From a virus (lineage: Duplodnaviria; Heunggongvirae; Uroviricota; Caudoviricetes), in the IMG/VR virus record IMGVR_UViG_3300027312_000135: a DNA stretch of 12,244 nt; one strand, written 5' to 3'. The number at the start of each line of letters is the position of its first letter. The first letter of the stretch is position 1. Below the pieces are notes generated by a model. That model was not told where the DNA came from, made no database searches, and worked only from the letters and a program-made list of their open reading frames with translations. Shown here piece by piece: positions 1,756 through 4,962 of this stretch. A program made the position numbers and the translations under genes.

Positions 1756-2675
1756 ATGAAATTTTCCTCCCACTCTCTGCGGTCGTTCCAGTGTGGAATC
1801 TGCTGCTGTGAACTGGATGGCGCGTTGCGGGCCGGCTGGCTCATCTGCGCTTTAAGGGTCGCCCACTGCTTTCGCAGCTTCGACGGGCTGAGGATGTTGG
1901 TCTGCCAGAACTGATTGCCGTTCGCCCAGGTGAAGACTTCGCAGATTTCCCGGTGGCTGACCTTCAGGGAATCGCGCATCAGGCGAATGTCGTTTGCCCA
2001 GGCTGGCCAGTTGGGTTGCTGTGCTGTCGGGGTGATCACCTGAACCTTGCTGAAAATCCACTGAGCAGCCAGAAGGTCTTCAGCGGTTCCCCACTTATCG
2101 CCCTTAGGTGAATGAACCGCTGCATCAGGCCGAACAACAGGAAGACTTTTCAGACGCTCGTCAGAGGATTCGCCAGAATTCTCGGACGTATGTTTAATGT
2201 CTTTTTTGTCTTTTGTAATAGTGTCTTTTGTGTGTCCCTGTTTTGGTGACATCCCTGTCACTGTTTTGGTGACACTTTTTGTCACTGTTTTGGTGACGGT
2301 GACACCATCTTGGTGACACTCTGGAATTTGCCACTCAGCGAGGTTCTTATTAGGCCCGATTAGCATGCCTTCCCGGACCAGAACACCCATCTGAATAAGC
2401 TCGTTTTTCGCCTTGTTCACCTTCTGCCTGGGCAGTCTGGTGAGCTGGCTTATCTGGCTGTCAGCAATGCGATCCATCTTTTTGTTGAAGCCGTATGTTT
2501 TCCGGCAAACAGCATGCGCAACCTTCGCCTGGTTCCTGGTCAGGTTGGCCCCTATCAGCTCTTCGTACAGCTCGTTTGCCAGACGCGTATATCCGTCGTC
2601 TGTGTCTGCCACACGTTGCTCCACGGCCCGGAGTTCGGGCCTGATTGGCGTTACATTTGCGAGAGCGAGGCTCAT
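1752..2675 (-). CDS. O: Lambda O-like replication initiator
   Basis: The N-terminal region (VADTDDGYTRLANELYEE...RKTYGFNKKMDRIADSQISQLTRLP...GPNKNLAEWQIPE) closely matches the lambda O N-terminal domain as I recall it. The central KTVTKTVTKSVTKTVT linker is encoded by the iteron repeats. Start overlaps the ParB-like stop. Confidence 0.9.
   Translation of the reverse strand: MSLALANVTPIRPELRAVEQRVADTDDGYTRLANELYEELIGANLTRNQAKVAHAVCRKTYGFNKKMDRIADSQISQLTRLPRQKVNKAKNELIQMGVLVREGMLIGPNKNLAEWQIPECHQDGVTVTKTVTKSVTKTVTGMSPKQGHTKDTITKDKKDIKHTSENSGESSDERLKSLPVVRPDAAVHSPKGDKWGTAEDLLAAQWIFSKVQVITPTAQQPNWPAWANDIRLMRDSLKVSHREICEVFTWANGNQFWQTNILSPSKLRKQWATLKAQMSQPARNAPSSSQQQIPHWNDRREWEENFI
2234..2317. repeat. 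Replication origin iterons inside the O gene, with adjacent AT-rich region (about 2195..2233)
   Basis: Three direct copies of the 17-mer GTCACTGTTTTGGTGAC (first copy GTCCC variant) at 2234..2250, 2257..2273 and 2281..2297, each with inverted-repeat arms, plus a degenerate fourth at about 2299..2317. A T-rich stretch (tgtcttttttgtcttttgtaatagtgtcttttgtg) lies downstream in the O reading direction, as in ori-lambda. Confidence 0.7.
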
Positions 2676-3475
2676 TTTGCCTCCTCCGGCTCTGTTGCAT
2701 CACCTAACACCCAACGGAGCGCTGCGGCGTAATCGCCGGTTGTCTCTGTCAGTGCCTGGGTAATTTCTTTGCGGGATCTCATGCGGGGTTTGCTTTCGCC
2801 CATCACGGCGCGCTGACGGCGGGCTCTTTCATGGCCCTTCGCTTCTGCACCGACTTGCGTTAGTTCTTTCACCTTGGCGCGCTGCTCTTCAGGCGGCATT
2901 GTTGACAGCTGGCGAGCATGCGTGACCGTCACCTGTCCGCCCTCTACTGCGTCCTGCACAGCCTGCGTGCAGTCCAGCAGTGCCAGGGTAGCTTTTACAG
3001 TCTGAAGGCTGCAGCCGAAAAGCAGCCCTAAATCCTGCTCATCGTGTCCGCGTTCAATCATCGCCGCCATTTTCTTTGCCCGCCCAAGGGGCGTATCGGC
3101 GCGCCGGATTTCGTTCGCGCTGACCATGTACTGGGACATGCGCACTGCCGATCCCCGCTTAGCGATTGCTGGCACGAGTACCGGTTCTTTACCTTCTGCC
3201 GCCAGGCGAATATTAGCCTCCAGGCTATGCCGGACCCGCTGACGACCGTCGACAACGCAGACCTTGCCGGATTCGGGATCTTTCCAGCACAGAACAGGCT
3301 CCAGAACGCCCTGATCCATGATGTTCAGCACCATCGCTTCGTCGATAGGCAGGTGAATGCGCTCGTCATAAAGCGGGTGTGATGGGTTGGTAACCAGGTA
3401 CAGGGCGCCCGGTTCGAAAAACAGCACGTTGCTTTTGCCGCTGGCGCCGTAAGCGTCGATTGAGTTCTTAGCCAT
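2672..3475 (-). CDS. ParB-like nuclease domain protein
   Basis: Track ORF with a GGAGG SD 5 nt before the ATG at 3475. Contains a VVDGRQRVRHSLEAN block resembling the ParB/Srx N-terminal arginine motif. Sits in the usual position between cII and O. Confidence 0.7.
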   Translation of the reverse strand: MAKNSIDAYGASGKSNVLFFEPGALYLVTNPSHPLYDERIHLPIDEAMVLNIMDQGVLEPVLCWKDPESGKVCVVDGRQRVRHSLEANIRLAAEGKEPVLVPAIAKRGSAVRMSQYMVSANEIRRADTPLGRAKKMAAMIERGHDEQDLGLLFGCSLQTVKATLALLDCTQAVQDAVEGGQVTVTHARQLSTMPPEEQRAKVKELTQVGAEAKGHERARRQRAVMGESKPRMRSRKEITQALTETTGDYAAALRWVLGDATEPEEAK

Positions 3476-3549: not shown

Positions 3550-3849
3550 TCAGGCCTCGAAGCTGTTCGCGCAGCTCGGGGCCTTTTCTTTGGTAAGAAG
3601 CTGCTCAATGCGAAGCAGTCTTTGCGCCACTTCAGATTCCGGCGACACAACATCGAGGTAAGCCATAGCGAGGCTCATCATCTGGAAGAAGCTGTGTTTC
3701 TGCATTCCCGATCTGCGCTTCATTCGGCTTATGGTCGCTTCATCCATATCAAGCACTTTCGCCAGAGTTCCTTGTCCGCGTTCAGCCAGCTTGTTCAGTA
3801 ACTGACTTTCGATTTCTCGCGCTTTTTTGCGATAACTTGCAATTTCCAT
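3550..3849 (-). CDS. cII: CII-like transcriptional activator
   Basis: Translation MEIASYRKKAREIESQLLNKLAERGQGTLAKVLDMDEATISRMKRR... parallels lambda CII (IESALLNKIA...VGVDKSQISRWKR) as recalled. Located downstream of cro and nutR. Confidence 0.8.
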   Translation of the reverse strand: MEIASYRKKAREIESQLLNKLAERGQGTLAKVLDMDEATISRMKRRSGMQKHSFFQMMSLAMAYLDVVSPESEVAQRLLRIEQLLTKEKAPSCANSFEA

Positions 3850-3960: not shown

Positions 3961-4176
3961 CTAAGAGGCGGCTAACAGGTCTGCAAGATCAGGGCGAATC
4001 TCGAACGGTTTAACTCGACCCTGCGTGGCCTTGGATATTGCCAACACATATTTGGCATCTATGCCGCCTCCGTGTAGCCAACGCCAAACGGTCGGCTGTT
4101 TGACGCCGCAGAGATCAGCCAGCTTTTGCTGACTTCCTGCGATGTTCACAGCCCTTTGAATAGCTTTGTTAGTCAT
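3961..4176 (-). CDS. cro: Cro-like HTH repressor (YdaS/Cro family), 71 aa
   Basis: Start taken at the internal ATG 4176..4174 (MTNKAIQRAVNIAGSQQKLADLCGVKQPTVWRWL...), with an AAAGGA SD 6 nt upstream. The track's upstream extension would overlap PR and the operators. Diverges from cI. Confidence 0.75.
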   Translation of the reverse strand: MTNKAIQRAVNIAGSQQKLADLCGVKQPTVWRWLHGGGIDAKYVLAISKATQGRVKPFEIRPDLADLLAAS

Positions 4177-4207
4177 AGCAATTCCTTTACGTATTATCAC
4201 AGCAGGA

Positions 4208-4236
4208 ATAATAGCAATGAGTATTGGTAAAGGCAA
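4208..4236 (-). promoter_or_regulatory. PR-like promoter for cro (-35 TTGCCT, 17 bp spacer, -10 TATTAT on the minus strand), overlapped by ATAGCAAT operator motifs
   Basis: The rc of 4231..4236 is TTGCCT and the rc of 4208..4213 is TATTAT, with a 17 nt spacer. ATAGCAAT occurs at 4176..4183 and 4211..4218, and GCAATAGC at 4233..4240. Confidence 0.55.
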
Positions 4237-4248
4237 TAGCTTTCCACA

Positions 4249-4276
4249 TTTGACGGTTAATACGCCTAGCTATAAA
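4249..4276 (+). promoter_or_regulatory. PRM-like promoter for cI (-35 TTGACG, 16 bp spacer, -10 TATAAA), giving a leaderless or near-leaderless cI mRNA
   Basis: TTGACG at 4249..4254 and TATAAA at 4271..4276. The cI ATG at 4286 is about 10 nt past the -10, as for leaderless lambda cI from PRM. Confidence 0.5.
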
Positions 4277-4285
4277 TTGCGGGGT

Positions 4286-4909
4286 ATGAATAAAACTCTC
4301 GCAGAAAGATTGGCTAAGGCCATGCAAGAAAGGGATATGTCCCAGGGTGCTTTAGCTAAAGCATCGGGTGTAGCCCAACCAACTATCTGGCGCCTAGTCA
4401 AAGGTGAGGCCAAGGGTTCGACTCGTCTGGTTGATATTGCGCGCGCTCTGTCGGTGAGCGTTGAGTGGCTGGCTAACGGAACTGGGTCGATGGATGCTCA
4501 GGAAAAGATGACTTATCCTCAGCCACCAGCCAATGAGATGAAGCTCGGAGGGGTGTTTCCTGTTCCTGTCTTTGATCGCTCTAATGAACAAACACATGAC
4601 TATGTGTATGTCCCAAATTCAGTAGAGAGTGATAGCTGTAGAGCTTATATCTTAGAGCGAAATAGCGGGTGTTATGAAGCCCCTGCAGGAACTGTTGTCG
4701 TAGTAGACACAAAGGAAGAAGCTGGTAATGGTGATCTGGTTTACGCCAAAGTTAACGGGGCGTATTCCGTCTATAAATTTGTTGACGGCGGATCCACGGG
4801 TTATCTGTCAGTAGATGATGATCGCGTTCCTCTCGTACCTGCGACAACCGATTCATCCGTAATAGGCGTCGTCGTTTTCCTGCTGCGTGATCTGAAGCGC
4901 AAAAAGTAA
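4286..4909 (+). CDS. cI: CI-like repressor: N-terminal HTH (XRE type) plus C-terminal LexA/S24-like domain
   Basis: MNKTLAERLAKAMQERDMSQGALAKASGVAQPTIWRLVKGE is a typical HTH. The C-terminal ...ILERNSGCYEAPAGTVVVVD...VYKFVDGG parallels lambda CI VEGNSMTAP...LILVD...FKKL around the Ser/Lys region. An alternative start at 4217 is possible but would overlap both promoters. Confidence 0.85.
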   Translation: MNKTLAERLAKAMQERDMSQGALAKASGVAQPTIWRLVKGEAKGSTRLVDIARALSVSVEWLANGTGSMDAQEKMTYPQPPANEMKLGGVFPVPVFDRSNEQTHDYVYVPNSVESDSCRAYILERNSGCYEAPAGTVVVVDTKEEAGNGDLVYAKVNGAYSVYKFVDGGSTGYLSVDDDRVPLVPATTDSSVIGVVVFLLRDLKRKK

Positions 4910-4925
4910 TCCTCTTCATTTTTAG

Positions 4926-4962
4926 GGGGGGTGTATTCTGTATACCCTCCTTGCTTATTTCT
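4926..4962 (+). terminator. Candidate intrinsic terminator after cI
   Basis: Hairpin GGGGGGTGTA / loop TTCTG / TATACCCTCC (10 bp stem with 2 G.U pairs) followed by the T-rich TTGCTTATTTCT. Confidence 0.4.

Follow-up and report, generated by a model that had tools for sequence, protein, structure and literature searches.

The segment at about 2160-2318 of the window (the whole 12,244-nucleotide stretch of viral DNA analysed here) is very probably the bidirectional replication origin of a lambdoid prophage, of the lambda type and carrying a non-lambda class of iterons. The assignment draws on the anatomy of the segment, its homology with ori-lambda, selection acting at the DNA level, and covariation of the iteron arms with the N-terminal domain of the O protein, each of which was observed directly.

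Early region of the prophage

The window contains the early region of a lambdoid prophage, running leftward on the minus strand in the order cI / cro-cII-(ParB-like)-O-P (Table 1). Beyond cI, on the other side, are N-like, RecE-like, RecT-like, DksA-like zinc-finger and DNA methyltransferase genes. The Phage_rep_O match covers amino acids 21-115 of the O protein, which is 51% identical to lambda O. A P-type helicase-loader gene follows immediately downstream, and its product is 42% identical to lambda P. The alignment with lambda P begins at residue 7 of the listed ORF, so that P most probably starts with the ATG at 1753-1755; as in lambda, this ATG and the stop codon of O overlap (ATGA at 1752-1755). 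Intact ORFs were present for O, P, cII, cro and cI.

The nearest genome was a Pantoea latae AS1 prophage, with an O protein 98% identical and DNA 95% identical over P, O and ParB; the same iteron array is kept in that copy. The exact O protein of the window was recorded in JGI/IMG alone, under generic cluster names only. Rfam gave no match anywhere in the window at E up to 0.1, with no sign of an oop-like RNA or of any other known RNA, and a scan for pR-like promoters returned 4 sites versus 3.0 expected by chance, which is not significant. Only 12 kb of the prophage is visible in the window, and the prophage could therefore be defective.

Table 1. Features of the early region and of the putative origin. 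Positions are those of the window.
Feature	Position	Strand	Remarks
cI-like repressor gene	4166-4909	+	
cro-like gene	3961-4236	-	
cII-like gene	3550-3849	-	
ParB-like (ParB/HTH_ParB) gene	2672-3475	-	directly upstream of O and translationally coupled to it
O-like replication initiator gene, 307 aa	1752-2675	-	contains the origin; Pfam Phage_rep_O (PF04492) 1.7e-36, phrog_277 1.6e-106
Predicted winged-helix N-terminal domain of O, aa 1-118	2322-2675	-	AlphaFold model and weak Foldseek matches
Iteron 1 (ITN1)	2300-2318	-	TGTCACCAAGATGGTGTCA; first in O reading direction, degenerate
Iteron 2 (ITN2)	2280-2298	-	CGTCACCAAAACAGTGACA; starts 20 bp after iteron 1
Iteron 3 (ITN3)	2256-2274	-	TGTCACCAAAACAGTGACA; perfect 6-bp arms; starts 24 bp after iteron 2
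Iteron 4 (ITN4)	2233-2251	-	TGTCACCAAAACAGGGACA; starts 23 bp after iteron 3; adjoins AT-rich tract
AT-rich tract, presumed unwinding element	2188-2232 (45 bp)	-	75% A+T, 61% A on the O sense strand
28-bp near-palindrome	2160-2187	-	GTCCGAGAATTCTGGCGAATCCTCTGAC; homologous to lambda 39162-39189
Lambda-P-like helicase-loader gene	1063-1755 (ORF listed as 1063-1773)	-	Pfam Phage_lambda_P 1.5e-64

Anatomy of the probable origin

A repeat finder located four in-register 19-bp copies of a dyad in the O gene, spaced 23, 24 and 20 bp on the + strand, which is 20/24/23 bp from start to start in the O direction. The sequence-only reading had described three near-perfect copies plus a degenerate fourth, spaced 23-24 bp. 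The number of copies was confirmed: the 17-mer GTCACTGTTTTGGTGAC occurred at 2234-2250 (1 mismatch), 2257-2273 and 2281-2297 (both exact), with 4 mismatches in the fourth copy and no further match in the 12.2-kb window. The spacing was correct for the intervals of 23 and 24 bp, and the third interval is 20 bp. The repeats are far beyond chance, with 0.04 matches expected and at least three matches obtained in 0 of 200 dinucleotide shuffles. Tandem Repeats Finder reported a period-24 array at 2233-2297 (score 95).

The iterons are thus tandem dyads of ~19 bp spaced about two helical turns apart, of the form TGTCAC-N7-GTGACA, with the window consensus TGTCACC-AAAAC-rGTGACA. Iteron 1 keeps the left arm and five of the six bases of the right arm, its deviations from the consensus falling in the centre and right arm; in Pantoea coffeiphila and Erwinia rhapontici relatives the same position is a perfect dyad. 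The right arm of iteron 4 (GGGAC) is invariant in 12 homologs and resembles that of lambda ITN4. Iterons 2-4 and the AT-rich tract agree with the family consensus.

As had been claimed, all copies lie inside the O-like gene and encode a KT/VT-type linker. They begin at O codon 120, between the N-terminal DNA-binding and C-terminal domains of this PF04492-family protein. Their translation is VTVTKTVTKSVTKTVTGMSPKQGH, the peptide of the ORF reads ...CHQDGVTVTKTVTKSVTKTVTGMSPKQGH... at this point, and the (V/K)T-rich linker is VTVTKTVTKSVTKTVT.

In the O direction the last iteron is followed immediately on its 3' side by the 45-bp AT-rich tract and then by the palindrome. GC content falls to 0.225 at 2190-2229; the tract is T-rich on the + strand and A-rich on the O sense strand, in line with the flank that the sequence-only reading had placed downstream. 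It is made of AAAAGACA-type units, encodes TKDTITKDKKDIKH, and contains short repeats detected by both the repeat finder and Tandem Repeats Finder. In the near-palindrome, 27 of 28 bases are those of lambda (GTCAGAGAATTCTGGCGAATCCTCTGAC). Since conserved origin DNA reaches this palindrome, the origin appears to be wider than the 2195-2317 first proposed: the iterons and AT-rich flank are indeed found there, and the origin would run on to ~2160.

Comparison with ori-lambda

In an alignment of O genes from the window, lambda, phage 21 and PhiR12_1, the window array was collinear with the lambda array. Annotated iteron starts in the lambda record (J02459) are 39034, 39054, 39078 and 39101, so that successive starts are 20, 24 and 23 bp apart. 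The window has the same spacing in the O direction, and the degenerate copy therefore occupies the ITN1 position. The two origins (lambda iterons at 39034-39118) also share their place in the O gene at the domain junction (codon 120 in the window, 117 in lambda), four 19-bp dyads with an AAAAC centre, the first ~24 bases of the AT-rich tract, after which the remainder diverges, and the overlap of P with the O stop codon. From the centre of ITN4 rightward the window sequence is nearly that of lambda (CAAAACAGGGACACACAAAAGACACTATTACAAAAGA versus CAAAACAGGGGGACACAAAAGACACTATTACAAAAGA), followed by ~20 bp that are more divergent and then by the palindrome. Megablast against lambda, phage 21, 933W and H-19B gave a match only at 2133-2245 (83.6%), because the origin DNA is conserved there.

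The differences from lambda are in the iteron arms (TGTCACC/GGTGACA in the window versus ATCCCTC/GAGGGAA), the recognition-helix region of O (LPRQKVNKAKNEL versus LPVKRCNEAKLEL), the ParB-like gene between cII and O, where lambda has only a short gap, and the host, which is Pantoea-like for the window and E. coli for lambda. The window falls outside the lambda replication-specificity class (lambda, 21, 933W, epsilon34), and its arms and helix region are unlike those of that class; the origin is therefore of the same kind as that of lambda but belongs to another specificity class. The proposal of a lambda arrangement with a different iteron sequence agrees with the collinearity, the spacing, the near-identical AT-rich tract and palindrome, and the differing arms.

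Selection on the DNA of the probable origin

Synonymous difference was measured as how often codons differ where two sequences encode the same amino acid. The first set consisted of 12 collinear homologs chosen by protein similarity from ~10 genera (Pantoea, Rahnella, Tatumella, Serratia, Providencia, Photorhabdus, Rosenbergiella and Erwinia among the sources, together with the E. coli phage PhiR12_1). The synonymous pair-difference was 0.50 in codons 21-118, which encode the folded N-domain, and 0.10 in codons 119-157, which hold the iterons and AT-rich tract. Amino-acid difference was 0.155 in the former codons and rose to 0.23 in the latter. When the codon values were permuted, 0 of 100000 permutations gave a mean this low.

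Two of the six peptide patterns used for the first set touch the edges of the origin, and the test was therefore repeated with sequences selected on the N-domain only. In 34 unique collinear IMG/VR sequences chosen by N-domain peptide patterns alone, the synonymous differences were 0.35 and 0.08. Conservation was taken from these protein-selected sets, since loci found by the iteron pattern would be circular for iteron conservation. The comparisons demonstrate selection on the putative origin DNA itself, beyond that on the encoded peptide.

The initiator N-domain and its iterons

The AlphaFold model of the N-domain from a single sequence had a pLDDT of 47.5, and a model with a 36-sequence alignment was used instead. 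The core pLDDT of this model was 68-92, from an alignment that is shallow (mostly short fragments, 53-85% identical to the query). Helices span residues 47-61, 72-79 and 83-95 in the model, and residues 99-108 form a beta wing. The top Foldseek matches were all winged-helix DNA binders of the CRP/FNR and MarR types and were weak (E 0.014 or higher); a PDB sequence search with O found no relative. The model suggests that the N-domain is a winged helix-turn-helix. Given the weak matches, the recognition helix was placed by analogy, and is predicted to be amino acids 83-95 (RQKVNKAKNELIQ).

Class A was defined as N-domains at least 70% identical to that of the window with the helix region LPRQKVN.AK. 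In each of the 60 unique arrays such an N-domain preceded 3-6 dyads of the GTCAC type together with the AT-rich anchor, with the consensus T-G-T-C-A-C-c-a-n-n-n-y-r-G-t-G-A-C-A. The comparison with other O-family origins that the sequence-only reading had suggested returned class-specific dyads: where the N-domain belongs to another class, the dyads at this place differ as well, and they share the 7+5+7 geometry and the A-rich centre (Table 2). The iterons are thus conserved as DNA and covary with the DNA-binding domain of the initiator. The arms track the N-domain class across many loci, as expected if the iteron predicts the binding specificity of O, which these comparisons support.

Table 2. 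Iterons and helix regions of O proteins in other N-domain classes.
Phage or locus	Iteron	Helix region
lambda, 21, epsilon34	ATCCCTCAAAACGAGGGAA	LPVKRCNEAKLEL
phiEt88	TGTTACCAAAGAGGTAACA	ISRSKANIAKNQL
Nil2	ATTAGCTAAAACAGCTAAT	IHHTHVCAAKRQL
PhiR30_1, Pantoea alvi, Pantoea deserta	TTTACCCGAATCGGGTAA	LPHKCSAAKS.L
P22, Moellerella	TTTACCGAAACGGTAAA (P22 TTTACC..GGTAAA)	P22 APTKCSTAKNEL, Moellerella DSTKCSTAKNQL
Pantoea rodasii and relatives	TGTCTCTAACCTAGAGACT	LSRQNVNKAKKEL
HK225	TTCCCGAAAACGGGAA	
Gifsy-2	ATCCCCGAAAACGGGGAT	
Pseudomonas MPK9	GTGCCGAAAACGGCAC	

The diversity of classes comes from genome loci and individual phage records, the best 80 related loci all being class A. Further iteron variants were seen in a Lentibacillus locus and in a MAG of a deltaproteobacterium. 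Class A and the Pantoea rodasii class make the closest contrast, with K85 and GTCAC arms in the former, and N and GTCTC arms in the latter; in these sequences this is a correlation and no demonstrated code. Pantoea alvi and Pantoea deserta combine a C-terminal half and AT-rich tract like those of the window with a different N-domain and different iterons, a mosaic that agrees with the known two-domain, exchangeable structure of O.

Relation to other replication systems

In lambdoid phages the origin lies centrally in O and is made up of iterons and an AT-rich tract, with iterons particular to each initiator (PMC7466680, PMC8022706). According to work cited in PMC7466680, lambda can do in vitro with just the pair of iterons closest to the AT-rich tract. 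The O genes of coliphages mEp043, Sf101, SEN22, vB_EcoP-720R6 and PhiR12_1 to PhiR12_5 share with the window the N-domain class (~73% identity), GTCAC-type iterons, their spacing, and the AT-rich tract. In mEp043 this N-domain and origin are joined to another C-terminal domain and a primase-helicase partner, and in PhiR12 they are joined to the lambda C-domain and P.

The Stx phages 933W and P27 (PMC7466680) likewise have lambda-type origins in O, and they make clear that the number of iterons is variable; they carry six iterons with lambda-type arms, whereas the window has four of another class. Synonymous recoding was applied to P27 in that work. Relatives of the window with 6-7 iterons were also found (loci L021-L023). 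The origin in P22 gene 18 and the repeats in gene 18 of phage L (PMC8022706) resemble the window in that the coding region of the initiator carries the repeats specific to it. The N-domain of the window and P22 gp18 are 52.7% identical; the iteron arms of P22 are different (Table 2), and its partner is a helicase of the DnaB type (gp12), where the window has a P-type loader. Iteron plasmids (RepE, pi, RepA) also combine a winged-helix initiator with tandem iterons beside an AT-rich unwinding element. Their iterons are direct repeats, bound by monomers and located outside the rep gene, whereas those of the window are dyads inside the gene and presumably bound by dimers. No sequence relationship of the window O to iteron-plasmid initiators was found by PDB sequence search or Foldseek.

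Alternative explanations and proposed mechanism

The segment might be homologous to a real origin and yet be a silent relic in a defective prophage that no longer fires. The departure of iteron 1 from the consensus, the presence of only part of the prophage in the window, and broken O genes in related loci (a stop after the AT-rich tract in L015, a cut after the N-domain in L024) would fit such decay. Against it are the intact early ORFs, the agreement of iterons 2-4 and the AT-rich tract with the family consensus, and the retention of the array in the 95%-identical Pantoea latae copy, and we consider a relic improbable. We gave almost no weight to repeats that only encode a low-complexity linker and are maintained by protein-level selection, with no role in cis. 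They do encode VTVTKTVTKSVTKTVT, and a flexible linker is expected in O; conservation of synonymous sites is nevertheless 4-5 times higher there than across the folded N-domain, with more variation in the amino acids, and dyad-symmetric arms are not a product of selection on protein. Other O classes encode quite different peptides at this place and always a 7+5+7 dyad. In the column-by-column alignment the arms were invariant and the linkers between iterons variable, which rules out a purely coding repeat.

Two readings assign the dyads to something other than O. That they are parS-like (centromere-like) or operator sites for the ParB-like protein is suggested by the coupling of its gene to O and by parS sites also being palindromes. 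This was rejected as highly unlikely, because a ParB-like gene is upstream in just 5 of 183 loci of this iteron class; mEp043 and PhiR12 have the same iterons without such a gene, and the arms covary with the O N-domain instead. The chance that the hairpin and T-run matches on the + strand at 2244-2287 are intrinsic terminators of antisense transcription is negligible. Although a consensus scan gave three terminator-like sites there, the stems hold just 3 G-C pairs apiece and are formed by an iteron dyad, or by a pair of adjacent arms, with the TTTTG centre after it. No gene of the + strand has its end in this stretch, the iteron sequence fully explains the pattern, and the matches were rejected as a by-product of dyad and T-run.

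A lambda-type origin would function here as follows, each step being taken by homology with lambda. O would act as dimers, with the N-terminal winged-helix domain contacting the four dyad iterons and one TGTCACC arm being read by each recognition helix (~aa 83-95). Strain from the resulting wrapped complex would open the adjoining A-rich tract, to which the C-terminal domain of O would bring P together with the host DnaB helicase that P binds. The early transcription known as rightward, which runs leftward in the window (cro, cII, ParB-like, O), would cross and activate the origin. It is by this analogy that we infer O binding, unwinding, helicase loading and origin firing at this site.

Distribution and significance

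An exact-pattern scan for TGTCACCAAAACNGTGACA matched at least 120 IMG/VR contigs, 119 of those listed having the same O-gene context. The iteron class occurs in prophages of about ten enterobacterial genera and in the deposited phages mEp043, Sf101, SEN22, vB_EcoP-720R6 and PhiR12_1 to PhiR12_5. Origin annotation is absent from the mEp043 and PhiR12_1 records, and no iterons or origin are described in the Sf101 paper; in the epsilon34 GenBank record the origin is annotated by similarity to lambda. A full-text search of the open-access literature for the iteron string returned unrelated primers only. The class is widespread and, in the records and open-access literature covered, apparently undescribed; there is a residual chance that it is already known, as the iteron of the classical phages 82 or phi80. 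The annotation of the HK225 O homolog points to similarity with 'replication protein 15 (O)', and the iteron of HK225 differs from that of the window; we take this homolog to be probably phi80-like. The palindrome, the good dyad at the ITN1 position in relatives, and the wide spread of the class, sequenced coliphages included, were seen beyond what the sequence-only reading had described.

The AT-rich flank is built of repeated AAAGACA-type units (CACAAAAGACA-N5-ACAAAAGACA-AAAAAGACA) that are conserved at synonymous sites. These units recur after unrelated iteron classes and beside unrelated C-terminal domains, and are present in O-type genes of Enterobacterales, a Pseudomonas phage and a deltaproteobacterial MAG. 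We tentatively raise the idea, which we think somewhat doubtful, that the flank is a sequence-specific element and more than an easily melted tract. If this were true, a conserved partner would read the AT-rich strand, for example through O's own single-strand binding or the incoming helicase. Together with the table of 7+5+7 dyads, the family would then give a readable helix-to-half-site code for orthogonal origin/initiator pairs, as in K85 with GTCAC versus N with GTCTC.

While the understanding of how lambda-type origins work stays unchanged, a probable origin and a likely DNA-binding specificity can now be assigned for a large group of lambdoid prophages that had lacked such annotation, with members in Pantoea, Erwinia, Serratia, Providencia, Photorhabdus, Klebsiella, Enterobacter and E. 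coli. The most useful outcomes are the helix-to-iteron table and the AAAGACA units conserved as DNA across unrelated O modules. The table of helices versus iteron arms provides hypotheses for origin specificity, for replicon incompatibility between co-resident prophages, and for the design of orthogonal replicons.

Modular structure of the O gene and its origin

In 12 of 12 class A homologs, which pair the window-type N-terminal domain with GTCAC-type dyad iterons, the right arm of iteron 4 (window 2233-2251) was found to be GGGAC rather than GTGAC (loci L001, L004 and L010-L020, and the window). From the centre of this iteron rightward, lambda carries the same DNA as the window. Because the GGGAC arm is invariant and the DNA to the right of the centre is common with lambda, the border between class-specific and common origin DNA is placed, on sequence comparison, at the middle of the last iteron.

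In the class A loci (L029-L228) the AT-rich tract ends on its right in a mosaic joint, since at least eight distinct C-terminal continuations follow the same N-terminal domain, iterons and AT-rich tract. These continuations include the lambda-type SENSGESSD, PPKAPKGEF, NTMSESVRTEC and INKPPKSPK. The O-related gene of Pantoea piersonii (L012) has an N-terminal domain unrelated to that of the window, and its dyads are replaced by repeated direct CCGCGCATA-type units; here the origin-binding module looks to have been swapped for a non-O one. Two further related O genes appear broken: in Providencia alcalifaciens (L015) a stop codon lies just past the AT-rich tract, and in a Klebsiella plasmid (L024) the gene is interrupted directly after the N-terminal domain, ahead of any iterons.

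Array size differed among loci of the same class, from three iterons in Photorhabdus kayaii (L019) to 6-7 in the Huaxiibacter, Entomohabitans and Enterobacter MAG loci (L021-L023). The additional copies in the longer arrays lie upstream and are of the GTCACCAyrgTAGTGAC type; these arrays recall the six-iteron origins of Stx phages.

Accessory genes and other features

The ParB-like gene lies between cII and O, and the start of O overlaps its stop codon (ATGA at 2672-2675). It is an accessory insertion, as it was present in only 5 of the 183 loci of the window's iteron class. The strong terminator-like hairpin is directly 3' of the cI-like gene. The 195- and 220-aa ORFs were without a PHROG match at 1e-5.

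Coordinates of the ParB-like gene, other window features and the Pantoea O-related gene
Feature	Location	Strand	Description
ParB-like gene	window 2672-3475	-	Pfam HTH_ParB, 1.5e-11; phrog_1033 and phrog_25613
Terminator-like hairpin, strong	window 4923-4953	+	14 pairs, then T-run
195-aa ORF	window 9356-9943	-	leftward early region
220-aa ORF	window 10243-10905	+	leftward early region
O-related gene, Pantoea piersonii	L012:5665-6675		has the window's AT-rich tract and palindrome, and its type of O C-terminal domain

Conservation of the AT-rich tract

AAAGACA-type units, the repeated motifs of the AT-rich tract, also follow the iterons in a deltaproteobacterial MAG (L027), Pseudomonas phage MPK9 (L237) and Gifsy-2 (L235); examples from distant O-type genes are ACACAAAAGACAAAAGACATCTACAAAAGACAAC and TATAAAGACAGTAAAGACAATAC. 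Their recurrence even in such distant genes suggests that conservation of the units may be sequence-specific and not merely compositional.
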